DNA from: an uncultured Gammaproteobacteria bacterium
GTDB taxonomy: Bacteria > Patescibacteriota > Microgenomatia > Daviesbacterales > UBA10151
Length of the DNA: 64,000 nt
Direction of reading: 5' to 3'
Assembly: GCA_964551605.1 (NCBI GenBank)
Contig: CAZKCV010000003.1
Location: forward strand, 15,474 to 79,473
A program made the translations under genes and the position numbers. The first letter of the stretch is position 1, and each line of letters starts with the position of its first letter. The notes under the pieces were generated by a model. The model was not told the DNA's origin. It ran no database searches and saw only the letters and a program-made list of their open reading frames with translations. Shown piece by piece: positions 5,016 to 39,454 of the stretch.

Positions 5016-6110
5016 TTATTTAAAGTAAGTTTCATTGGCAAATTTGATTTGTTCAATAAACAATCTTTTAATATGGACTATACTGAGCTGCTCATAAAAA
5101 AGTATTAAGGCTTTCTTAAATTCCTCTTCATCCACACTCCTGTAAGATAAAGGGTAAAGATCCCAGGCCAGCAAGATAGCATTAGTTAACATCCTTCCTG
5201 TTCTTTTATTCCCGTCAGAATATGGCTGAAGATAGGGAATCATAACATGGGCAATTAGGGCCTTCTCAAAATAATCCTGAGCCAGATTTATTGCTTTGAC
5301 TATTCTCTCAAACGCCTCTTTTATTTGAAATTCATTGTCAGGGGGTCTATAAAGCGTGCCTGTTATACCCACCGCTTGTTTTCTAATTCCGGTGGAGATG
5401 GATAAATCCTTAACTAAAATATTATGCAGTTGATTAATGTCTGAAGTAGAGATTACCTGAAAATCATTTTTATTTTTAAGTATGGTGTCAAAAGCTGATT
5501 TATGGTTTAAAATCATAATAGCCTCATCCTTAGTTTTACCTCTCGCCTCTTCCTGCTCTTTAATTAAACTTTCAGTTTCCAGGAGGGTATAAGTGTTACC
5601 TTCAATTTTGGAAGACTTCCATGATAGCTCAATAACAAATCTTTCCAGTTCCCTTTGCAAGATGTCCGGTGCTAAATGGCTGGTTTTTTGGATAAAACTG
5701 AACTTCGATTTTTGAAGATCAGCCAGCTCGTTGGGTAATAAAAGGTTATGTAGAAATTTAAATACACCCCCGTCAAAACCTTTTTTAACATCTGCTCTTT
5801 TATCAGGATCCAGGGCAAAATACTGTTCAAGATCAAAATAGCGCAGGAGTGGATTATCTACCACTGATAAATAACGGGTTGCCTTTGCTTTACCGTCAAT
5901 TTTTATCAGCTTAGCACTAAGAAGAATATTCAAATCCCGGATTAATGTTGGTTTTGATATTGGATATAATTTCTCAACTTTTCCCTGAATTTCTTCTCTA
6001 AGTAACCCTTCTGACTGGTTGATAATATTTAAAATATAACTTTGCCTTGGAGTAAGGATCGTCTCATTCATGTGTATCAATCGTATCATATTGAGACGAT
6101 CTGTCAACAC
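5016..6110 (-). CDS. Fic/Doc family protein with variant core motif (QPYSDGNKRTGR) and N-terminal winged-helix-like region
   Basis: 364 aa. HVMIPYLQPYSDGNKRTGRMLTNAILL aligns to the Fic/Doc motif, but with Gln in place of the catalytic His and a Doc-like Lys. The N-terminal region (LTPRQSYILNIINQSEGLLREEI) looks like a wHTH. Confidence 0.6.
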   Translation of the reverse strand: MLTDRLNMIRLIHMNETILTPRQSYILNIINQSEGLLREEIQGKVEKLYPISKPTLIRDLNILLSAKLIKIDGKAKATRYLSVVDNPLLRYFDLEQYFALDPDKRADVKKGFDGGVFKFLHNLLLPNELADLQKSKFSFIQKTSHLAPDILQRELERFVIELSWKSSKIEGNTYTLLETESLIKEQEEARGKTKDEAIMILNHKSAFDTILKNKNDFQVISTSDINQLHNILVKDLSISTGIRKQAVGITGTLYRPPDNEFQIKEAFERIVKAINLAQDYFEKALIAHVMIPYLQPYSDGNKRTGRMLTNAILLAWDLYPLSYRSVDEEEFKKALILFYEQLSIVHIKRLFIEQIKFANETYFK

Positions 6111-11875: not shown

Positions 11876-11929
11876 AAAAACCTAACGCCTGAGCAGGTTT
11901 AATTTTGGTTCGATTAACGTCAACCCTTG

Positions 11930-12195
11930 CTCCCCCGAGAGGATTCGAACCTCTAACCTAGTCATTACTTTAATGGACTATCTCATCACCATAGATTAAA
12001 CCTTTAGGTGGTGGGCGCTTAAAGATGTACTCATCTAGTCTCTGCACCTTCCCCCCGCCAAAGGCGGGAGGCTTGGCTCAGGATTGTCCTTCACTTTCGT
12101 TCAAGACGTTCCCTGAATTCACCCACTTCTCATTCCGATGTTTCCACCGAAAGCTGCTAACACAGTGACCCGCTCTACCATTGAGCTACAGGGGA
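11930..12195 (-). tRNA. tRNA-Asn(GUU) interrupted by a ~194-nt group I intron in the anticodon loop
   Basis: Reverse complement gives exon 1 TCCCCTGTAGCTCAATGGTAGAGCGGGTCACTGT (12162-12195) and exon 2 TAATGACTAGGTTAGAGGTTCGAATCCTCTCGGGGGAG (11930-11967). Joined, these form a canonical cloverleaf with anticodon loop CU-GUU-AA, a TTCGAAT T-loop and a 7-bp acceptor stem with a U1-A72 pair. Confidence 0.75.
11968..12161 (-). ncRNA. group I self-splicing intron (core P, Q, R, S elements present) inserted after U of the anticodon loop
   Basis: The 5' exon ends in U and the intron ends in G (...ATTAAAG), as expected for group I introns. Intron sequence contains GAATTCAGGGAAC (P-like), AATCCTGAGCC (Q-like), GCAGAGACTAGA (R-like, GACUA G-site side) and GAGATAGTCC (S-like). 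Confidence 0.65.
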
Positions 12196-15322: not shown

Positions 15323-15394
15323 GAGATTGTGGCTGGATTGTACACCAAAGAAGGCCCGAAAACAAGGCTACGGGTGAATCGAGGTAAAAACGGG

Positions 15395-15481
15395 CGGTGG
15401 GAGAGGGATTCGAACCCTCGGTAGACTTACGCCCACACGATCTTTCCAGGATCGCCGGTTAAACCACTCCCGAATCCCACC
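15395..15481 (-). tRNA. tRNA-Ser(GGA), type II with long variable arm
   Basis: Reverse complement GGTGGGATTCGGGAGTGGTTTAACCGGCGATCCTGGAAAGATCGTGTGGGCGTAAGTCTACCGAGGGTTCGAATCCCTCTCCCACCG. Anticodon stem CGATC/GATCG, loop CU-GGA-AA, long variable arm, and a 7-bp acceptor stem. Confidence 0.8.
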
Positions 15482-15520: not shown

Positions 15521-15570
15521 AGACAATGCCCTTGACAAAAAACAGGTATTACTATAAAATAGGTAATACT
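15521..15570 (+). promoter_or_regulatory. promoter (TTGACA -35, TATAAAAT -10) overlapped by a 7-bp-arm inverted repeat GTATTAC-N10-GTAATAC; the start codon lies immediately downstream, implying a leaderless transcript
   Basis: ttgaca at 15521-15526; gtattactataaaataggtaatac spans the -10 region; ATG at 15571. The longer ORF start at 15526 would contain the -35 box, so 15571 is preferred. Confidence 0.45.
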
Positions 15571-15867
15571 ATGTTGCAAATTCAAGCTACTACTATTACT
15601 CAAAAAGGGCAAGTAACAATACCTGCACCGGTCAGAAAAGCTTTAGGCCTGAAACCCGGCGATCAAATAAATTTTAAAGTTACCGGCAAAACTAAGGCAG
15701 AGATAAAACCTAAAAAGAGATTTTCTATCATGTCACTCTACGGCTCCTTAAAACCAAAAGTCATACCAAATCTAAGCGGCCAGGAGCTAATTAAATGGGA
15801 AGAACAGGCTTGGCCGCAAGCAGCTGTAGAAAGAGATCAAAAAACTATGAGAAGTATTAACAAGTAA
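15571..15867 (+). CDS. AbrB/MazE/SpoVT-type antitoxin (VapB-like)
   Basis: KGQVTIPAPVRKALGLKPGDQINFKV is the swapped-hairpin beta-barrel motif of AbrB/MazE antitoxins. The gene lies directly upstream of a PIN gene. Confidence 0.7.
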   Translation: MLQIQATTITQKGQVTIPAPVRKALGLKPGDQINFKVTGKTKAEIKPKKRFSIMSLYGSLKPKVIPNLSGQELIKWEEQAWPQAAVERDQKTMRSINK

Positions 15868-15872
15868 AAATC

Positions 15873-16274
15873 ATGATTTTACTTGATGCTAATATTATCC
15901 TGCGTTTTATTCTTGCTAATGACCCCGAGCTTTCTCCTAAAGCTGAAATTATAATTAAAAAAATTGAACAGGGAAAAGTAAAAATTCAGATAACTCTACT
16001 GGCTTTTTCGGAAGTGGTTTTTACTTTGGAGAGAGCTTACAAGATGCCTAAAGCAGAAATTACCCAAAAATTACTTTATTTACTACAAGTTAACAACTTA
16101 AAATTCGAAAAACAGAATATGCTACCTGAAATTTTTAAGTATTACCATGAAAAAAATATCAGTTTTATTGATGCTTACCATATTGTCCTGATGAATAAAA
16201 AGAAAATTAAGAATATTTATTCTTTTGACCGGGATTTTGATAAATTTCCTGAGGTTAAAAGACTTGAAAATTAA
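15873..16274 (+). CDS. PIN domain toxin (VapC-like)
   Basis: 133 aa. The N-terminal MILLDANIIL carries the first catalytic Asp. Further acidic residues are distributed as in VapC (FIDAYHIV..., SFDRDF). Confidence 0.8.
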   Translation: MILLDANIILRFILANDPELSPKAEIIIKKIEQGKVKIQITLLAFSEVVFTLERAYKMPKAEITQKLLYLLQVNNLKFEKQNMLPEIFKYYHEKNISFIDAYHIVLMNKKKIKNIYSFDRDFDKFPEVKRLEN

Positions 16275-18744: not shown

Positions 18745-18768
18745 GTTTTTAATCCACTTTATAATAAG

Positions 18769-18842
18769 TACGCCTGAGAGGATTCGAACCTCCGACCCCA
18801 AGATCCGGAATCTTGTACTCTAATCCACTGAGCTACAGGCGC
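18769..18842 (-). tRNA. tRNA-Arg(CCG)
   Basis: Reverse complement GCGCCTGTAGCTCAGTGGATTAGAGTACAAGATTCCGGATCTTGGGGTCGGAGGTTCGAATCCTCTCAGGCGT. Anticodon stem CAAGA/TCTTG, loop UU-CCG-GA, and a G1-U72 wobble. Confidence 0.8.
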
Positions 18843-19002
18843 ATCATAACAACGCATCTTCGACATCTTTTTTAAAAGACTTTTTATCAAAAAATCCAAT
18901 CTTCCATCTGGCTGTTGCTCCACGACACCATGCTCTCGCAAATAAGAGCTTCTTGACTTTTCTTGGTTTAATTGGTTTTTTAGTTTTTGGTAATGACATA
19001 AG

Positions 19003-19084
19003 CGGAGGGTGCAGGAGTCGAACCTGCTAGGGCTTTCACCCGATGGTTTTCGAAACCATTACCTTACCGTCCGGCCCACCCTCC
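19003..19084 (-). tRNA. tRNA-Ser(CGA), type II (D-arm fold less certain)
   Basis: Reverse complement ...GGAGGGTGGGCCGGACGGTAAGGTAATGGTTTCGAAAACCATCGGGTGAAAGCCCTAGCAGGTTCGACTCCTGCACCCTCCG. Perfect anticodon stem ATGGT/ACCAT, loop UU-CGA-AA, long variable arm, T-arm GCAGG/CCTGC, and acceptor GGAGGGT/ACCCTCC. Confidence 0.6.
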
Positions 19085-19090
19085 CTAAAG

Positions 19091-19163
19091 CGCGCCTGGA
19101 GGGAATTGAACCCCCGACTTCAACGTCCGCAACGTTGCGCTCTATCCGCTGAGCTACAGGCGC
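19091..19163 (-). tRNA. tRNA-Arg(GCG)
   Basis: Reverse complement GCGCCTGTAGCTCAGCGGATAGAGCGCAACGTTGCGGACGTTGAAGTCGGGGGTTCAATTCCCTCCAGGCGCG. Perfect anticodon stem CAACG/CGTTG, loop UU-GCG-GA. Shares acceptor and D-arm with the tRNA-Arg(CCG) gene 250 bp away. Confidence 0.75.
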
Positions 19164-19203
19164 AGGTAATGTGTATTGTACAACAGGCGAAGCTAATATG
19201 CGA

Positions 19204-19794
19204 TTAACGATGGACGTTTTCCAGAGGAAAATGCTTTTGCAGTGATTCTGACCATTTCTCCATCAGTGATTTATATGGCTTTTCATGAAATGGCAAAAAG
19301 CGGGCTACTATTTTTTTAATCTTCTCATCATCTTCTTTGCCTAAAACCAACATCAACTGAGTAGGAAATCTAAGCCGTGTCTGAACATGTAAAACCTTTA
19401 AATTATCTTTTTCTTTAAACCAGAATGAATCCAAAAAATGCCAGAAATAAAAATCCTCACCTATTGTAATCCCCTGGGTAGAAATATGGTAAGTAATATT
19501 GTGCGGCGGCACAAAAGCCAGGACATAAGTCACGAAAGCAAAAGAAAGTATCACTCCAATCAGTAAAAACTCCTGGGCTAAGAAAGCAATTAGAACTAAA
19601 AGTAAAGCAATTATGGCAATGGTGGTGTAGTAGGAACGGTCTTTTTTCTTAAAAGGCCGGGCCGGCGCTTCCCAAGACAGTAGAGTTTTAAGCTCCTCTG
19701 CTTCACTCATTTTGGGGGTGAAAAATTCCGGTCCGGTAGCTTTTTCTGAATGTTTTTCTTTAGGTGCTTCTTCTCTAGGATTATCCTTGGGCAT
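19204..19794 (-). CDS. membrane hypothetical protein
   Basis: Internal start MPKDNPREE (19794) is preferred because it avoids overlap with the endonuclease gene. Two TM helices (YYTTIAIIALLLVLIAFLAQEFLLIGVILSFAFVTYVLAF). Confidence 0.45.
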   Translation of the reverse strand: MPKDNPREEAPKEKHSEKATGPEFFTPKMSEAEELKTLLSWEAPARPFKKKDRSYYTTIAIIALLLVLIAFLAQEFLLIGVILSFAFVTYVLAFVPPHNITYHISTQGITIGEDFYFWHFLDSFWFKEKDNLKVLHVQTRLRFPTQLMLVLGKEDDEKIKKIVARFLPFHEKPYKSLMEKWSESLQKHFPLENVHR

Positions 19795-19804
19795 TTGATT
19801 TAAA

Positions 19805-20581
19805 TTATATATCAAAAAAAAATTTAGTAACAGTTGCTCTATCAAATTCTGTTTTCCAGCTATCATAAGAAGATATATCTTTAATGAAACTTCTTTTCAG
19901 TAACTTAGGATTACTAAAACCAATCCTTTCTCGATATATGTCTATGCTTTCATGATTACTTAAATAAAGCGATCTCTTCATTGTAAGCGTAGGCTTTAAA
20001 CCTAAATTGAGTAAGTTATCTTTTACAAATCTCATAAGTATCATATTTGCATTCCTGAAATTTAATTGTTTGTAAACACGAATCCCCTTTCTACTGTTAT
20101 AAAGCTTAAATGATATTGACCCCTCTGTGTCGAATAACCCACGAACGCATGCTCTACTATATTCTTCTCTCTTCAATATCCAATTTGGCACTACTTTTGC
20201 GTTGGATATAATCCCCATGCTTTTAAGAAAATTTACCGCGATTTTGGAATTTATTCTAATATCTACAGCATTTTCTCTTTTTCTTTTGATTACAGAAAAA
20301 GTGGCTCCAGGAAATAAGTTTCTTGCTAAATTTTCCACATATGATAAATAATCTCGATCCGCGATAAAGTTTAGTGTAATACCTACCTGATAACCAGAAG
20401 CATAGCCATCTCCAAGACAAATACCAATAAATTCTGCTAAAAGTTTACCTTTACGAGGCAGTGTTACTTTATTAAGGCCATTCCTATTATAACCACTTGA
20501 ACATGATAAAGAACAAAATTTACGAATACTTTCTCTTTTCCGATACTCATTCTTACAATGTTTGCAAACACCAAGCATCAT
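19805..20581 (-). CDS. LAGLIDADG-family homing endonuclease-like protein (double motif) with N-terminal Zn ribbon
   Basis: 258 aa. CKHCKNEY...CSLSCSS Zn ribbon; first motif LAEFIGICLGDGYAS; second motif CVRGLFDTEGSISF. Apparently free-standing, not inside an intron or intein. Confidence 0.65.
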   Translation of the reverse strand: MMLGVCKHCKNEYRKRESIRKFCSLSCSSGYNRNGLNKVTLPRKGKLLAEFIGICLGDGYASGYQVGITLNFIADRDYLSYVENLARNLFPGATFSVIKRKRENAVDIRINSKIAVNFLKSMGIISNAKVVPNWILKREEYSRACVRGLFDTEGSISFKLYNSRKGIRVYKQLNFRNANMILMRFVKDNLLNLGLKPTLTMKRSLYLSNHESIDIYRERIGFSNPKLLKRSFIKDISSYDSWKTEFDRATVTKFFFDI

Positions 20582-20666
20582 ATTTTTACACTAAACCACT
20601 CTGCATATATCATCCCATCAAGCTTCTAGCTTATCAAGTATCAATTTGCTACAATTAGCTTCTGAG

Positions 20667-20754
20667 GGTGGGGTGCTTGGAGTGGTTTATCAGGTTGGTC
20701 TTGAAAACCAATGATCGAGCAATCGGTCCGTGAGTTCGAATCTCACCCCCACCG
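20667..20754 (+). tRNA. tRNA-Ser(UGA), type II
   Basis: GGTGGGGTGCTTGGAGTGGTTTATCAGGTTGGTCTTGAAAACCAATGATCGAGCAATCGGTCCGTGAGTTCGAATCTCACCCCCACCG. Anticodon stem TTGGT/ACCAA, loop CU-UGA-AA, long variable arm. Confidence 0.75.
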
Positions 20755-20777
20755 CCCTAGGTTAATAACCTATAGTA

Positions 20778-20864
20778 GGAGAGGTCGCATAGAGGCCGAG
20801 TGCCGCGCAGTGCTAATGCGCTATACCCGTAAGGGTATCGTGGGTTCGAATCCCACCCTCTCCG
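20778..20864 (+). tRNA. tRNA-Ser(GCU), type II
   Basis: GGAGAGGTCGCATAGAGGCCGAGTGCCGCGCAGTGCTAATGCGCTATACCCGTAAGGGTATCGTGGGTTCGAATCCCACCCTCTCCG. Anticodon stem GCGCA/TGCGC, loop GU-GCU-AA, long variable arm, acceptor GGAGAGG/CCTCTCC. Confidence 0.7.
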
Positions 20865-20885
20865 CAGATAGGCTACAATAAAAAT

Positions 20886-21181
20886 ATGGCTAAAAAATTT
20901 AAAATATTTAATATTTCCCAAGTACCGTTTGAAGATATCCATGACACGCCAAACTAACAAAAGGCGCCTTAAAACCAGGACAAAAATGGAACTGGCATAA
21001 ACATGATCAATACGATGAACTTGGAATTGTTTTAAAAGGAAAAGGTAAATTTTATTGGGTGGATGAAATTGCAAATTATAAAGAGGAAGATGTAATTATC
21101 ATTCCAGCCGACACTAACCATAAATTTGAGGCCGAAGGCGATATAAACAGTGAATTTTACTTTGTCCGCATCAAAGTTTAG
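20886..21181 (+). pseudogene. cupin-domain protein gene interrupted by a frameshift in an A-rich run (~20951-20962)
   Basis: Frame 0 reads MAKKFKIFNISQVPFEDIHDTPN then stops at 20955. A second frame continues TKGALKPGQKWNWHKHDQYDELGIVLKGKGKFYWVDEIANYKEEDVIIIPADTNHKFEAEGDINSEFYFVRIKV, which is cupin-like (HKH...E, conserved barrel), with no ATG of its own. Confidence 0.5.
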
Positions 21182-21184
21182 TTT

Positions 21185-21883
21185 TTATCTAGCTAACGTA
21201 ATTGCCCAGACTTTTTTGACTCCATTTCTTTTCAAAACATAAGCGCATTCCCGGAGCGTTGAACCGGTAGTCCAGACATCATCTATGAGCAGCGTATAGG
21301 GTTTAGGGTGTAGGGTATAGTTAGGAGAAATCTCAAAAGCGTCCCGGATATTTTGGTGGCGGTCATAACCTTTTATTTTTACTTGAGGCTTAGTGTAGCG
21401 AACTCGTTTTAAACCTTCACAGTAATCTAAACCTAACTTTTTGGATAAAGTTTGTCCAATCAAAGAAGACTGGTTAAAACCTCTGTCATTACTCCTCCAC
21501 CAATGTAGCGGTACCGGAATTACCACCCATCCTTCCCCTTTACTCTTTTTAATTTGCTCTAAAACAAACGGCTGATATTTACCCCAATATTCCACCAATA
21601 TATCCACCAAGGTTTCTGCCAAACCGCTGACTCTACCATACTTCAGCTGTTTTATAGCTTCTCTTAATGAACCCTGGTATATGCCTAAACTCCACAGGCC
21701 GTCTAAGCCGTATCTTCTTTTGCAAATCGGGTGGGTTTGGCCTCCAACAGCTAACTGTTCACACTTAGGGCACACCAAATCCGTTTGCAAAATATTGGAA
21801 ATACAATCCGTGCAGTAATAAGTATCTAACTTTTTACAGCCAACACACCTTTTTGGAAAAAGCAGATCTAAAATTAGATTCAT
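21185..21883 (-). CDS. comFC: ComF family protein (ComFC-like: N-terminal Zn finger + phosphoribosyltransferase domain)
   Basis: Cys clusters CVGCKK...CTDC...CPKCEQ...HPIC. The C-terminal PRT motif LLIDDVWTTGSTLRECAYVLKRNG is present. Internal start MNLILDLLFPKRC (21883) is preferred over the longer ORF. Confidence 0.75.
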   Translation of the reverse strand: MNLILDLLFPKRCVGCKKLDTYYCTDCISNILQTDLVCPKCEQLAVGGQTHPICKRRYGLDGLWSLGIYQGSLREAIKQLKYGRVSGLAETLVDILVEYWGKYQPFVLEQIKKSKGEGWVVIPVPLHWWRSNDRGFNQSSLIGQTLSKKLGLDYCEGLKRVRYTKPQVKIKGYDRHQNIRDAFEISPNYTLHPKPYTLLIDDVWTTGSTLRECAYVLKRNGVKKVWAITLAR

Positions 21884-22311
21884 ATAATTGATTTTAAGCC
21901 TATTTTGTGGTAATATACAAACCTGGGGATGTATTGTCTCGACAGAATTGCTCTTTGAAAACTGCAAGCCGAATAGGAAACATTATTCGTTAAATATTGT
22001 TTCAAAACACAAACGGCAATAAAATTGTCGGATCCCTCAAGGGTCAAATTCAAAGCCTTATGGCTTTGAACGGCCAAGGCAGCTTTGCTGCTTTAGCAGC
22101 CTAACAGGGTACTTTAGAAATTGTTCTCTTTCTGACGGAATACTAAAGTACGTACAAAGTCAGGATGCTGTTAATCAGGTGTTGGTTGATCCGTATTAAC
22201 AAAAGACAACTCAATCATTCATTAGTTTTCCTGCTAATTGGTTACAACTAATGAACAAAAATTAATTAGCTAAGCTTGTAGAAGATTTTAAAGTCACAAT
22301 TTTGGACGGGG

Positions 22312-22839
22312 GTGCAAAGCCCCCCATCTCCACCCATTGACTATAACTCCACAGTAATATACGCTGAAGGTGTGAGAAAAAAGTGTCTTAAGTGTTATAG
22401 AATATTTGCTCCATCCAGTAGACACATACTATGTCCATCTTGTAGAGGACAAATATACAAAAAGCCATGTCCTAACTGCGGAAAGCTTATCCAACCAAAA
22501 TCATTTCTTTGTGGCAAATGCGACGGTATGAACCGAAGAAAAGCGGACGGTGATCTTTACACTGATAAGAAAGGTTATATTCTTGTTTTTTCTAGAAATC
22601 ATCCAAGGGCATCAAATCGTTATGTTTTTGAACATATTTTAGTGATGGAGAAAAAGTTAGGAAGATATGTATTACCCAATGAAAATATTCATCATAAAAA
22701 TGGTGTTAAGGATGATAATCGCATTGAAAATTTGGAATTATGGGTCAGACCGCAACCAACAGGGGTAAGAGCAAAAGATGCCATAGTTTGGGCAAAGGAA
22801 ATATTAAAAACTTACGGGAATGACGAAAATCAGTATTAG
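22312..22839 (+). CDS. HNH endonuclease with N-terminal Cys-rich Zn-ribbon repeats (homing-endonuclease-like)
   Basis: CLKCY..CPSCRG..CPNCGK..CGKCDG followed by the HNH core NIHHKNGVKDDNRIENLELW. The ORF as listed starts with GTG inside a G5-N8-C6 hairpin. The true start could be a downstream ATG. Confidence 0.7.
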   Translation: MQSPPSPPIDYNSTVIYAEGVRKKCLKCYRIFAPSSRHILCPSCRGQIYKKPCPNCGKLIQPKSFLCGKCDGMNRRKADGDLYTDKKGYILVFSRNHPRASNRYVFEHILVMEKKLGRYVLPNENIHHKNGVKDDNRIENLELWVRPQPTGVRAKDAIVWAKEILKTYGNDENQY

Positions 22840-22938
22840 TTGTGTCCAACAAGATTGTTTCGCTGATCGCTCACAATGACGAAAGAAGAGGATGATTCTC
22901 TACCGCAAAGTTCTTATTCCGCATGTTATAGTTAATTT

Positions 22939-23853
22939 ATGAGTGATATCGGTAAAGAAGGTCCGCGTATCCCCACTACTTCCTGGGAACAAATTAGGGC
23001 TATGCAATTAAGTACTCCCTATTCAGAAACGTTGAGGGCCTTTTTTGCAAGATCCAAAGAGTGGAGGGCTCAACCAAGACAACCAATTTCAGAAGAGGAG
23101 TTGAGAAATGCAATAAAACAACAAGTTATTAAGGCTAATGCTATGGTCCAAAATTACCATAACCCCGATTTAAAAATGATGAAATCCAGAAAAGTATTTG
23201 CTCAAGGTCTTGCTCGACCAGAGATTGGACAGCAAGTTCTAACCAGACTTTATTTTGGAATTGATTCCAGGCATTCAGCGGATGCTTTTAGTATATTGAT
23301 TGATGAATTCTCAAAGGCTGGATGTATGAGGGATATTGATATTGCCTTTAATGAAACAGCTATTGAGGAAGGTCGAACTACCTCCGATATGCTTGTAATC
23401 TATGAACCGCAGTCTCGCCCAGTTGTATTAAACAAAATCTTATCTGCTTACCGTTTAGCCAAAGAGCAACACCCAGATGTTTTCAATCTGACTCCCAGAC
23501 AGAGAGAGGCTGTGATGAGGCACGCCGTAATGCAATTTAAGGCTCCGATTGATGCAAACCTATCTTTTGTAGAAATGGATCCGGAAGATGCAGGGAAAAG
23601 CTGGGATACCGACGAAGTAAGAGAGATAAGAGCAGTTTCTGGTATAAATCATGTTCCTATTCCGAGCTTACCTAGACTAACTGACGAGGATTGGCTAAAA
23701 AAACAAGAGGCTGTAGAAAAAAGAGTTGTTTGGACTAAAAAGGCCGAAGAAGCCATAAAAAGCGGCAATGTAAAATCTGGAGATCAGTTAGAGTATAAAA
23801 GAAAATTATCCACCCCAGCTTTAGTTCAAAGAGGAACAATTACTGCAAAGTAG
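22939..23853 (+). CDS. hypothetical protein (no recognisable motif; GC-richer than surroundings)
   Basis: 304-aa intact ORF; coding is likely from its length and codon usage. Confidence 0.4.
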   Translation: MSDIGKEGPRIPTTSWEQIRAMQLSTPYSETLRAFFARSKEWRAQPRQPISEEELRNAIKQQVIKANAMVQNYHNPDLKMMKSRKVFAQGLARPEIGQQVLTRLYFGIDSRHSADAFSILIDEFSKAGCMRDIDIAFNETAIEEGRTTSDMLVIYEPQSRPVVLNKILSAYRLAKEQHPDVFNLTPRQREAVMRHAVMQFKAPIDANLSFVEMDPEDAGKSWDTDEVREIRAVSGINHVPIPSLPRLTDEDWLKKQEAVEKRVVWTKKAEEAIKSGNVKSGDQLEYKRKLSTPALVQRGTITAK

Positions 23854-23859
23854 AAAAAA

Positions 23860-24306
23860 TCATTCCCTCCCCCGTAGCTCTTGTTCCACTCTGCGCTGAT
23901 GATCTTTTGCTTTAATTAGCTTTCTCTTATCAAATTCTTTTTTACTCTTAGCCAGGCCTATTTCCAGCTTAAACCGGTTATTTTTCTCATAGATTGATAC
24001 CGGTACTAAGGTAGTCCCTTTTCCGGAGACTTTTCCAACCAGGGAGTTTATTTGATCTTTATGCAGTAATAACTTCCGGCTCTTCCCCGCATCATATTCT
24101 TTGTCTGCCGCCTGGTTATACCTGGGGATATTGGCATTGATTAAATAGGCCTCCCCATTTAGTACCCTGATATGACTCTCTCCCAAATCAATTCTGCCGG
24201 CCCGGATTGATTTAACCTCAGCACCTGACAGAACTATCCCGGCTTCCAGATGTTCCAGAATGTGATAATTATGGAGAGCTTTTTTGTTAATAATTCTCAT
24301 AGTCAT
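23860..24306 (-). CDS. smpB: SsrA-binding protein SmpB
   Basis: RIINKKALHNYHILEHLEAGIVLSGAEVKSIRAG...HIRV...EAYLINANIPRY..., the characteristic SmpB sequence. The start may be the second Met (24300). Confidence 0.85.
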   Translation of the reverse strand: MTMRIINKKALHNYHILEHLEAGIVLSGAEVKSIRAGRIDLGESHIRVLNGEAYLINANIPRYNQAADKEYDAGKSRKLLLHKDQINSLVGKVSGKGTTLVPVSIYEKNNRFKLEIGLAKSKKEFDKRKLIKAKDHQRRVEQELRGRE

Positions 24307-39110: not shown

Positions 39111-39454
39111 ATAACTCCTGCTCGGGATAAAAAATTGTGGTCGGTCTCCTGACTTTACCCTTCGATTCCACTCAGGGTTATAACAGTTGCGGCACAGTCT
39201 CTGATTTACACAGAGTTCCCTTAAGAGCGAAGCTTGCAAGCTCCGCTTATTGTACTTTGAGTTCAATTCTGAACCTAGTACACCACCATCCCAGCATAGC
39301 CGGAGAATTATCAATTTTCAAGTCCCAATTTTCTCCACTGATTTAATCTGATCTTGTCCGAATTGATCTGTTTTGTGCCGCTTGCCAATACTTTTTTCAC
39401 GTTGTATAACAGTGATGAGTTCGTAGTTGGTAGTTCGTAGTACTAAGTTATAAA

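Follow-up and report, generated by a model that had tools for sequence, protein, structure and literature searches.

Homing endonucleases are believed to survive chiefly inside introns and inteins or in the intergenic regions of phages. Here, we describe two candidate genes of this kind in a stretch of 64,000 nucleotides (nt) of contig CAZKCV010000003.1 from an uncultured bacterium; this whole stretch is called the window in the following. A cluster of Ser and Arg tRNA genes, the transfer-messenger RNA (tmRNA) gene ssrA and smpB form a conserved stable-RNA neighbourhood, which is colonised by two unrelated endonuclease genes, one of the LAGLIDADG family with an N-terminal zinc (Zn) ribbon next to tRNA-Ser(UGA) and one of the HNH_3 family at the 3' end of ssrA. 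Both are probably free-standing homing endonucleases that use the flanks of RNA genes as an intron-like niche, and each of the two families keeps to the edge of a particular kind of stable-RNA gene. Their nearest precedent is SegB of phage T4, a free-standing homing endonuclease whose gene lies among clustered tRNA genes and which cuts the tRNA region of a related genome without this gene (PMC2330249). The Seg and Mob enzymes of T4 undergo intronless homing, in which the endonuclease gene is inherited with co-conversion of flanking markers (PMC2330249; PMC2790892). Like these systems, the window shows presence and absence of endonuclease genes, mosaic RNA genes and a number of synonymous substitutions per site (dS) that rises away from the HNH gene. 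SegB, however, is a GIY-YIG enzyme of a phage and spreads in co-infection, whereas the enzymes of the window are of the LAGLIDADG and HNH_3 type and reside in cellular chromosomes. Moreover, and again unlike SegB, they have a fixed family geometry, at the 5' end of tRNA-Ser or tRNA-Tyr and at the 3' end of ssrA, respectively, and the members with a Zn ribbon (Zn-type) add a sequence that resembles half a tRNA.

Two other kinds of elements are known to use the same RNA genes. Group I introns in the anticodon loops of tRNAs and in the T-loop of tmRNA exploit stable-RNA genes while the mature RNA stays intact (PMC3984707; PMC11915505). The neutrality of these introns is due to self-splicing, whereas for the genes described here, which have no ribozyme, it would come from the processing of leader and trailer. 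Known traffic at ssrA consists of integrase-borne islands and of T-loop group I introns (PMC11915505; PMC3146451). The genes of the window share their target genes with the integrase islands, and in both cases the insertion may bring its own replacement for a piece of the RNA gene, here the last ~35 nt of ssrA and the tRNA 5'-half-like sequence. Unlike these islands they are single-gene insertions without integrase or attachment (att) repeats, and the element on the tRNA side lies 5' of the tRNA. Among open-access papers we found none on a linkage of LAGLIDADG genes to tRNA-Ser in bacteria or archaea, and none on a free-standing HNH gene beside ssrA. Free-standing homing endonucleases as a type are already known; new is the family-wide attachment to the 5' edges of tRNA-Ser and tRNA-Tyr genes and to the 3' edges of ssrA.

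The position of the LAGLIDADG gene is shared by its relatives. A scan of one genome per species gave 158 relatives, of which 80 loci were kept, and the geometry was counted over 85 family open reading frames (ORFs) in 81 loci. A tRNA gene lies within ~130 nt of 79 of the 85 ORFs, and it is nearly always tRNA-Ser (GCU, UGA, CGA, GGA) or tRNA-Tyr. The ORF is co-oriented with the tRNA in 64 cases, with the tRNA starting between -107 and +50 nt from the stop codon; as the median is -15 nt, the reading frame often ends inside the tRNA. Eleven ORFs are divergent from the tRNA as in the window, 4 are convergent, and 6, mostly at contig ends or in archaeal loci, have no tRNA nearby. This association exceeds chance: 60 of the 85 family ORFs are accompanied by a tRNA-Ser or tRNA-Tyr on the same strand whose start lies between -110 and +50 nt relative to the stop codon, compared with 6 of the 454 other ORFs of at least 200 amino acids (aa) in the same loci, which served as control. 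Public gene calls confirm the overlap of ORF and tRNA, which is 23 nt in L254 and 25 nt in L086 (here and below, L001, L081, L086 etc. are labels of relatives' loci compared with the window), and three more independently fetched contigs obey the tRNA-edge rule. The hosts are labelled as members of the candidate phyla radiation (CPR), DPANN archaea, Planctomycetota, Chloroflexota and Omnitrophota.

The family comprises two types. In the full-length Zn-ribbon loci a tRNA-Ser is found within 100 nt in all 17 cases, and it is tRNA-Ser(UGA) in 16 of them. The long-type members have ~330-350 aa with weak helix-turn-helix (HTH)-like matches in the N-terminal domain, some also with weak matches to Pfam WhiA domains, and their genes are located directly upstream of tRNA-Ser(GCU, CGA, UGA, GGA) or tRNA-Tyr. 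L002 and L027 carry two LAGLIDADG copies each, and in L008 the second copy is split. Place and orientation of tRNA-Ser(GCU) relative to the LAGLIDADG gene differ in L002, L004, L005 and L253. In several CPR genomes (loci L018, L021, L029, L033, L034, L044, L058 and L060) ARAGORN reports a "tRNA-Ser(ACU)" with an unusual anticodon beside tRNA-Ser(GCU) and the LAGLIDADG gene. The Ser/Arg tRNA cluster of L253 (Levybacteria) furthermore contains two stand-alone GIY-YIG genes (5060-5299 and 2508-2759, encoding 79 and 83 aa, respectively), one of which ends 4 nt before tRNA-Ser(CGA); these genes may represent a third nuclease family in the same niche.

An earlier note on this DNA, made without database searches, had described the LAGLIDADG gene as a double-motif gene with a Zn ribbon, and this gene is real. 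The encoded protein matches Pfam LAGLIDADG_3 with 38.4 bits (cut-off 22.5) and has two LAGLIDADG motifs, LAEFIGICLGDG with D58 and RGLFDTEG with E153, whose acidic residues D58 and E153 are invariant in an alignment of 25 relatives (A1); the same relatives align over the N-terminal cysteine cluster C6-C9-C23-C27 (CxxC...CxxxC). The AlphaFold model of the protein (predicted local distance difference test, pLDDT, 90; predicted template modelling score, pTM, 0.83) is predicted to adopt the two-domain alpha-beta-beta-alpha-beta-beta-alpha LAGLIDADG fold. Its top match in Foldseek is the archaeal intron enzyme I-Tsp061I (E 1.5e-10), followed by intein endonuclease domains, I-DmoI, I-AniI, I-SceI and the bI3 maturase, and a profile search of PDB sequences agrees, with intron- and intein-encoded LAGLIDADG enzymes as best matches. 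Judged by sequence and model, the protein is a bona fide monomeric LAGLIDADG scaffold with intact catalytic residues. It has the fold, the two motifs and the conserved acidic residues in common with I-DmoI, I-Tsp061I and the endonuclease domains of inteins. In contrast to these enzymes, with which it shares 15-21% identity, it has an extra Zn ribbon at the N-terminus and its gene lies outside any intron or intein, while the long-type members add an HTH-like domain of ~125 aa that I-DmoI and I-Tsp061I do not have. The gene stands alone between the DUF5673-like gene and tRNA-Ser with no ribozyme near it in the Rfam scan, has a guanine and cytosine (GC) content of 27-34% compared with ~40% in the flanks, and is under purifying selection, with a ratio of nonsynonymous to synonymous substitution rates (dN/dS) of 0.16 against L001. 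An exact-match look-up of the 258-aa protein gave no record, and the recorded form has 257 aa and begins at the second Met.

Every Zn-type gene is preceded on its coding strand by a sequence resembling the 5' half of a tRNA-Ser. In the window this stretch reads GATGGGATGATATATGCAGAGTGGTTTAGT, and the window's own tRNA starts with GGTGGGGTGCTTGGAGTGGTTTATCAG. In L007 and L254 this sequence is GGAGGCGTGCCGGAGTGGTTGATCGGGTTGG; it stops 5 nt short of the ATG and resembles positions 1 to ~29 of the neighbouring tRNA, to which 26 of ~33 aligned positions are identical (z 6.3). In L009-L017 the D-arm part GAGTGGTT(T/G)AA is found 15-20 nt before an extended -10 box, and the TTGAAC of the D-loop may double there as a -35 element. 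The loci of the divergent type share a highly conserved 16-nt core, TGCAGAGTGGTTTAGT, located 0-8 nt before the ATG.

The second endonuclease gene is attached to another RNA gene. What the earlier note had taken for a 430-bp non-coding gap behind comFC is in fact ssrA: it matches RF00023 over the full model length, the tag predicted by ARAGORN ends ...FAALAA, and smpB is 1.5 kb off. The gene is orthologous to the tmRNA genes of L001 and L081. The HNH gene following it was correctly assigned to its family, since the ORF matches Pfam HNH_3 with 37.1 bits (cut-off 24.8) as well as a double zinc ribbon model, so that the motif assignments of both endonucleases survive the profile search with scores above the cut-offs. 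Its start had to be moved from 22312, which lies inside the tmRNA, to the GTG at 22372. This start gives a protein of 155 aa, and all homologues begin there with M-[R/E]-K-x-C; public records shorten the gene to 103 aa. H88, H107, H108, N116 and N120 are invariant in the HNH alignment (A3). With more than 900 proteins from many phyla and more than 560 relatives in viral contigs the family is large. In a survey of full-length homologues in metagenome and viral-contig loci, at least 26 of them, nearly all with at least 46% identity, abut the 3' end of a tmRNA gene. Conversely, a tmRNA gene adjoins almost every full-length homologue that reaches 46% identity, and most of the closest relatives from other phyla have this position. 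The linkage of the HNH gene is therefore to ssrA and not, as had been proposed, to the tRNA genes. HNH gene and tmRNA are usually convergent, and 5-60 nt separate the stop codon of the HNH gene from the 3' end of the tmRNA; the tandem order, tmRNA followed by HNH, is found in the window, L081 and L088. The neighbours on the far side of these loci are unrelated housekeeping genes, smpB lies on the tmRNA 5' side in two of them, and no integrase was seen beside the HNH gene in the inspected HNH-ssrA loci.

Several of these tmRNA and HNH loci have further features. In L091, L092, L094, L097, L098, L105-L107, L112, L124, L161 and L174 a hairpin of ~20 bp pairs the 3' acceptor strand of the tmRNA (e.g., CACCTCCAA) with a distal arm (TTGGAGGTG) at the tmRNA/HNH junction. 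From locus to locus the distal arm covaries with the acceptor strand. The hairpin is located where the HNH reading frame has its non-conserved tail, and RNA folding gives z values of -3.5 to -4. In the window, the 3' strand of ssrA shows no significant pairing with the region of the HNH start (z -1.3). Additional HNH-family genes of different kinds (PF01844, HNH_2) occur near HNH-ssrA in L089 (3256-3774), on the tmRNA 5' side, and in L105 (344-1261), ~80 nt upstream of the HNH_3 gene and away from the tmRNA. The tag-coding stretch of the tmRNA (22011-22105) is 42% identical to that of the tmRNA in L081 (3390-3808) and cannot be aligned with that of the tmRNA in L001 (4288-4708), while the remainder of the RNA is 90-99% identical; the three tags are unusually long (~29-33 codons) and end with A-[L/F]-A-x-A.

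Comparison with relatives shows that the HNH cassette moved recently. For this purpose L081 and L086 are taken together as one closer relative, and L001 is the second informative relative. In L001, which has no HNH gene, smpB, ssrA and comF are collinear, whereas in the window and in L081 ssrA is inverted together with the HNH gene between smpB and comF. Comparing the window with L086 by DNA identity and dS per region, the HNH gene is 99.1% identical (464/468; dS 0.033) and the 36-nt spacer upstream of it 100%. The values are 94.6% and 0.13 for the DUF5673 region, 88.3% and 0.43 for comF, 84.9% and 0.78 for smpB, and 82.6% and 1.79 for rpoD, and dnaG is 79.4% identical; dS climbs with the distance from the HNH gene from 0.033 to 1.79. 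The near-identical tract begins inside the T-arm of ssrA. In the genomes with the HNH gene (window and L081) the T-loop reads TGCAAAG and the gene ends with ...ACCC, compared with TTCAAAA and ...ACCA in L001 without HNH gene. Such a pattern is the mark of a recent lateral transfer of the cassette together with co-conversion of its flanks. The 3' part of ssrA in the window (22311-22335) is unusual in itself, with a G in the T-loop where the second T is normal and an ...ACCC end, so that CCA is not encoded.

Turnover is also seen at the tRNA genes. The synteny comparison that the earlier note had recommended shows endonuclease genes present or absent and RNA genes rearranged among L001 and L081/L086. 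L001 is 66-79% identical to the window at the DNA level and has the LAGLIDADG gene with the same alleles of tRNA-Ser(UGA) and tRNA-Ser(GCU) in the same place. L081/L086 are closer, with most genes 78-88% identical and the stretch from tRNA-Ser(CGA) to DUF5673 94.6%. In L081, however, positions 19802-21185 of the window, comprising the LAGLIDADG gene, both tRNAs and the decayed cupin gene, are replaced by 237 nt that bear very different alleles of Ser(UGA) and Ser(GCU) on the opposite strand and no LAGLIDADG gene. At the same site, presence and absence are therefore found for both genes: window and L001 share the LAGLIDADG gene, which L081 lacks, and window and L081 share the HNH gene, which L001 lacks. 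A third case is tRNA-Ser(GGA), whose 5' end is overlapped by 25 nt by a long-type LAGLIDADG gene of 380 aa in L086 only, out of window, L001 and L086. The tRNA-Ser(GGA) of the window is a mosaic, as its 3' third aligns with L086 (BLAST match on the dnaG side) and the 5' two-thirds differ. For the LAGLIDADG genes, replaced and mosaic tRNA alleles and a lower dS are indirect signs of lateral spread and co-conversion. This part of the window is a hot spot of recombination between close relatives. It is not an integration hotspot of the recombinase type, as there is neither an integrase nor a repeat of the ssrA 3' end, and the integration hotspot suggested earlier is not supported.

The flanks of these tRNAs also hold other variable material. 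A second LAGLIDADG gene upstream of the window's tRNA-Ser(GGA) was considered and rejected, since an AbrB/VapC-like pair (15526-16274) occupies this position. Between 15393 and 17710, upstream of tRNA-Ser(GGA), the window contains this pair, a DUF5652 gene and a gene of 388 aa; L001 has none of them, and L086 retains the DUF5652 gene but has the LAGLIDADG and cupin genes instead at the edge of tRNA-Ser(GGA). The cupin gene is intact in L001 and L086 (90-104 aa), where L086 has it relocated beside the long-type LAGLIDADG gene; the pseudogene of the window is 79.6% identical to the L086 copy at the DNA level. An insert of 159 nt (18843-19001) splits tRNA-Ser(CGA) and tRNA-Arg(CCG), which are 1 nt apart in L001 and L081. 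It holds a Lys-rich ORF of 51 aa without homologue in any fetched locus, and a relic of a GIY-YIG gene was rejected here because of this and because no significant similarity was found.

We consider free-standing homing at the edges of processed RNA genes the probable explanation for both endonuclease genes. Established are the family memberships, the geometry, the presence and absence among relatives, the recent transfer of the HNH cassette and the purifying selection, whereas the activity of the endonucleases, their targets, the trimming of the leader by RNase P and the route of repair are inferred. The LAGLIDADG protein would cleave DNA site-specifically and the HNH protein would nick or cleave it. 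RNase P and 3' processing trim the flanks of tRNAs and tmRNA. In the usual layout the ORF precedes the tRNA on one strand, without spacer or with its stop codon in the tRNA, and would thus ride in the tRNA 5' leader; RNase P would cut off this ORF-bearing leader, making the insertion as harmless as an intron. An insertion in the 5' leader or 3' trailer would leave the mature RNA unchanged, with processing standing in for splicing, and the host stable-RNA gene is assumed to be single-copy, essential and conserved. The LAGLIDADG enzyme is expected to cut an endonuclease-free tRNA-Ser in the 5' half or the anticodon stem, a target suggested by the position of the gene and the tRNA-half-like sequence. 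Candidate targets are ORF-less tRNA-Ser alleles of the GAGTGGTT type and the GGAGTGGTT D-arm allele without ORF. Repair from a donor with the order 5'-half copy, ORF and intact tRNA would then copy the ORF together with the 5' part of the donor's tRNA, which would lead to mosaic or replaced tRNA alleles as found at Ser(GGA). The divergent layout of the window may be a rearranged derivative of the co-oriented one: a layout like that of L253 (Ser-UGA on the minus strand, ORF, Ser-GCU on the plus strand) would give the window layout by an inversion and a relocation of Ser-GCU, and L002, L004 and L005 look like intermediates on this way. Similarly, the HNH_3 enzyme is expected to cut an HNH-free ssrA near the T-arm or the 3' end, and its gene would then be copied along with the last ~35 nt of ssrA.

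Several observations weigh against this explanation. The retention of the acidic residues of motifs 1 and 2 in 84 and 83 of the 85 family ORFs, respectively, is partly built in, because the locus set was gathered with peptide patterns that cover the catalytic motifs. The dS of the LAGLIDADG gene against L001 is 0.91 compared with at least 1.9 (saturated) for its neighbours, a difference that may come in part from the AT-rich composition of the gene. Furthermore, the gene is stably syntenic with L001, with 75% amino acid identity, and this synteny together with the low dN/dS shows long residence and not recent movement. The tRNAs themselves are less conserved than the motif before the ATG of the divergent-type loci, and this motif may have a regulatory role, as ribosome-binding site or operator, instead of being a relic. 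No tRNA-half sequence was found upstream of long-type members (median z ~0). Two archaeal loci adjoin tRNA-Gln, which the idea of a preference for class II tRNAs does not explain. Finally, some of the labels of metagenome-assembled genomes are unreliable.

A more far-reaching variant takes the endonuclease genes as vehicles that drive the horizontal replacement of tRNA-Ser, tRNA-Tyr and tmRNA alleles across lineages and phyla, with the RNA gene or its half copy as integral part of the cassette. We regard this variant as tentative and on balance doubtful. The RNA gene or half copy would serve as homology arm, as promoter, with the TTGAAC of the D-loop as -35 element, and as immunity allele, and removal of the ORF by RNase P or 3' processing would replace splicing. 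If this is true, it would mean an intron-equivalent lifestyle in cellular genomes, and it could explain mosaic tRNAs in CPR and DPANN genomes.

Alternatively, both proteins could be domesticated host factors, i.e., regulators, RNA maturation factors or enzymes for the maintenance of RNA genes, whose genes are kept adjacent to the RNA genes for co-expression. The deep linkage to RNA genes, with a geometry conserved across phyla, would fit this, as would the missing spacer, which implies co-transcription with the tRNA, the purifying selection (dN/dS 0.16 and 0.08), the conservation of the pre-ATG motif beyond neutral expectation, the resemblance of the fold to the bI3 maturase and I-AniI as well, and the synteny of the window's LAGLIDADG copy with L001. 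However, at three different RNA genes close relatives differ in whether they carry the endonuclease gene, the orientation to the RNA gene flips for LAGLIDADG and HNH alike, and the HNH cassette, which is almost the same in two diverged genomes, belongs to a family abundant in viral contigs. The LAGLIDADG family is small and patchy, with one split copy (L008): an exhaustive profile search of 1.84 billion representatives gave only 311 clusters at 50% identity and E <= 1e-30, which is a small number for a housekeeping gene. For the same reasons, presence and absence among close relatives and small family size, the genes are no conserved housekeeping paralogs, an outcome which the earlier note had named as speaking against a link to introns. 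Finally, the catalytic acidic residues are kept, whereas WhiA and many maturases have lost those of their LAGLIDADG motifs. The window protein shares with WhiA and LAGLIDADG maturases the LAGLIDADG scaffold with an extra nucleic-acid-binding domain. WhiA has degenerate motifs and a C-terminal HTH and is near-universal, whereas the proteins described here keep the acidic residues, carry the extra domain at the N-terminus and are patchily distributed. We therefore rejected membership in the WhiA-like group of domesticated LAGLIDADG proteins, with the retained acids, the N-terminal position of the extra domain, the 311 clusters and the absence from close relatives as reasons. Taken together, domestication is an unlikely explanation that retains some weight because of the deep linkage and the purifying selection, and homing at RNA-gene edges is preferred to it.

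Somewhat harder to uphold is that the genes are relics of intron- or intein-encoded endonucleases that lost their ribozyme or intein, or that serve ORF-less introns in trans. The closest solved structures are indeed archaeal intron- and intein-encoded enzymes, and in L007 and L254 the order tRNA 5' half and ORF puts the start of the ORF near the position of anticodon-loop introns in tRNAs. Moreover, the tmRNA T-loop is a known site of group I introns, some of which carry LAGLIDADG genes (PMC11915505), and an ORF-less group I intron is only 8 kb away in the window. This intron (11958-12169), which the earlier note had correctly placed in a tRNA-Asn near 12 kb, splits tRNA-Asn(GUU) in the anticodon loop, as mapped by means of the intron-less tRNA-Asn of L086, and it is the only intron match in the whole-window Rfam scan. 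As already noted before, neither endonuclease gene lies within an intron or intein, and the same scan detected no ribozyme around either ORF. A past intron or intein mobility, as had been suggested, has left no recognisable intron or intein relic around either gene. In the co-oriented loci the ORFs are followed by an intact tRNA and not by a 3' exon, and the HNH relatives are free-standing in every inspected locus. Neither family tracks tRNA-Asn or any intron; both track other RNA genes, which speaks against the proposed service of the tRNA-Asn intron in trans. The tRNA-Asn is intron-less both in L001 (12562-12636), which has the LAGLIDADG gene, and in L086 (1380-1452), which has the HNH gene, i.e., the intron is polymorphic, and trans-service was rejected because relatives bearing one or the other endonuclease gene lack it. 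Descent of the LAGLIDADG gene from a tRNA-intron endonuclease is a possible origin, but as an account of the present genes an intron relic is improbable.

Integrases target the 3' part of tRNA genes. No integrase domain was found among the neighbours of the endonuclease genes, no second copy of the ssrA 3' end was detected with up to 3 mismatches allowed, and a repeat scan of 18-25 kb gave only matches at chance level. That the nuclease genes are cargo or debris of integrase-borne elements at an ordinary integration hot spot, or lie there by coincidence, is very hard to believe, although integrating elements classically target ssrA and tRNA genes (PMC11915505; PMC3146451), phages often carry HNH_3 genes, and ORF304 (see Table) and the toxin-antitoxin pair show that other material lands here too: an integrase-type island at ssrA or tRNA was rejected because neither an integrase nor a directly repeated ssrA 3' end is present, each insertion consists of one gene between housekeeping genes, in many phyla, the LAGLIDADG genes lie on the 5' side of the tRNA, and the family-level association is far above the control rate.

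The features of the window are listed in the Table. The five tRNA genes that the earlier note had placed around the LAGLIDADG gene were all recovered at the claimed places and strands with ARAGORN and Rfam, and its description of both endonucleases as free-standing and of the homing-endonuclease type agrees with their intact catalytic motifs. Among them, tRNA-Ser(CGA) is a member of a Ser/Arg tRNA cluster conserved in Microgenomates (L025, L253), and the genome of the window is itself of the Microgenomates type (CPR/Patescibacteria). The DUF5673-like gene is syntenic in L001 and L086 and therefore a conserved neighbour outside the mobile units. The assignment of comFC fits as to the ComF family, but the score is below the curated cut-offs (TIGR00201 ComF, E 2.4e-28), with weak matches to Pfam DZR_2 and Pribosyltran. 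The 976-nt insertion with ORF304 is missing in L081 and L086, where the gap between HNH gene and smpB is ~50 nt. ORF304 (304 aa) has no match in Pfam or NCBIfam and only 6 homologues at other sites, e.g., in L250 (1119-2081) between map and infA beside a Bro-N protein; another homologue is found in L251 (1598-2518). It looks like a roaming gene. Scans for promoters and terminators gave counts no higher than in shuffled sequence and are hints only. A cobalamin riboswitch (39122-39259, minus strand, 39.9 bits in Rfam) is present in this apparently small genome of CPR type.

Table. Genes and other features of the window that are discussed in the text, in order of position.
Feature	Position	Strand	Evidence and remarks
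tRNA-Asn(GUU) split by group I intron	11929-12195 (approx.)	minus	Rfam RF00028 69.1 bits, intron span 11958-12169
tRNA-Ser(GGA), mosaic allele, no endonuclease gene adjoining	15393-15481	minus	ARAGORN
tRNA-Arg(CCG)	18768-18842	minus	ARAGORN; Rfam tRNA 65.2 bits
tRNA-Ser(CGA)	19002-19084	minus	ARAGORN, Rfam
tRNA-Arg(GCG)	19090-19163	minus	ARAGORN, Rfam
DUF5673-like membrane protein gene	19204-19794	minus	weak Pfam DUF5673 match
LAGLIDADG endonuclease gene with N-terminal four-cysteine Zn ribbon	19805-20581	minus	Pfam LAGLIDADG_3
tRNA-Ser 5'-half-like sequence GATGGGATGATATATGCAGAGTGGTTTAGT	20590-20619	minus	ends 8 nt before the LAGLIDADG start codon
tRNA-Ser(UGA)	20667-20756	plus	ARAGORN, Rfam; divergent from LAGLIDADG gene, 85-nt spacer
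tRNA-Ser(GCU)	20778-20865	plus	ARAGORN, Rfam
Cupin-family pseudogene	20886-21181	plus	frame ends after 23 codons (read from sequence)
ComF-family phosphoribosyltransferase gene	21185-21883	minus	start at 21883 set by comparison with L001
tmRNA gene ssrA	21925-22335	plus	Rfam RF00023 124.8 bits; ARAGORN tag peptide
HNH_3 endonuclease gene with double Zn ribbon	22372-22839	plus	36 nt downstream of ssrA
976-nt lineage-specific insertion with orphan ORF304 (22939-23853)	22881-23856	plus	
smpB, protein partner of tmRNA	23860-24306	minus	Pfam SmpB E 7.7e-49

If both endonuclease genes indeed live by homing at RNA-gene edges, homing endonucleases would have a third, widespread refuge in the processed flanks of tRNA and tmRNA genes; it would extend through cellular genomes down to the tiny ones of CPR bacteria and DPANN archaea. 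This would account for the differences of whole tRNA-Ser alleles, the inversions and the mosaic tRNAs that are found here between close relatives, and it would provide a route of lateral transfer for RNA genes that are usually taken as vertically inherited. Furthermore, the two families would then represent two natural sets of sequence-specific nucleases, each with a predictable and highly conserved target, for one family in the 5' half of tRNA-Ser and for the other at the ssrA 3' end.

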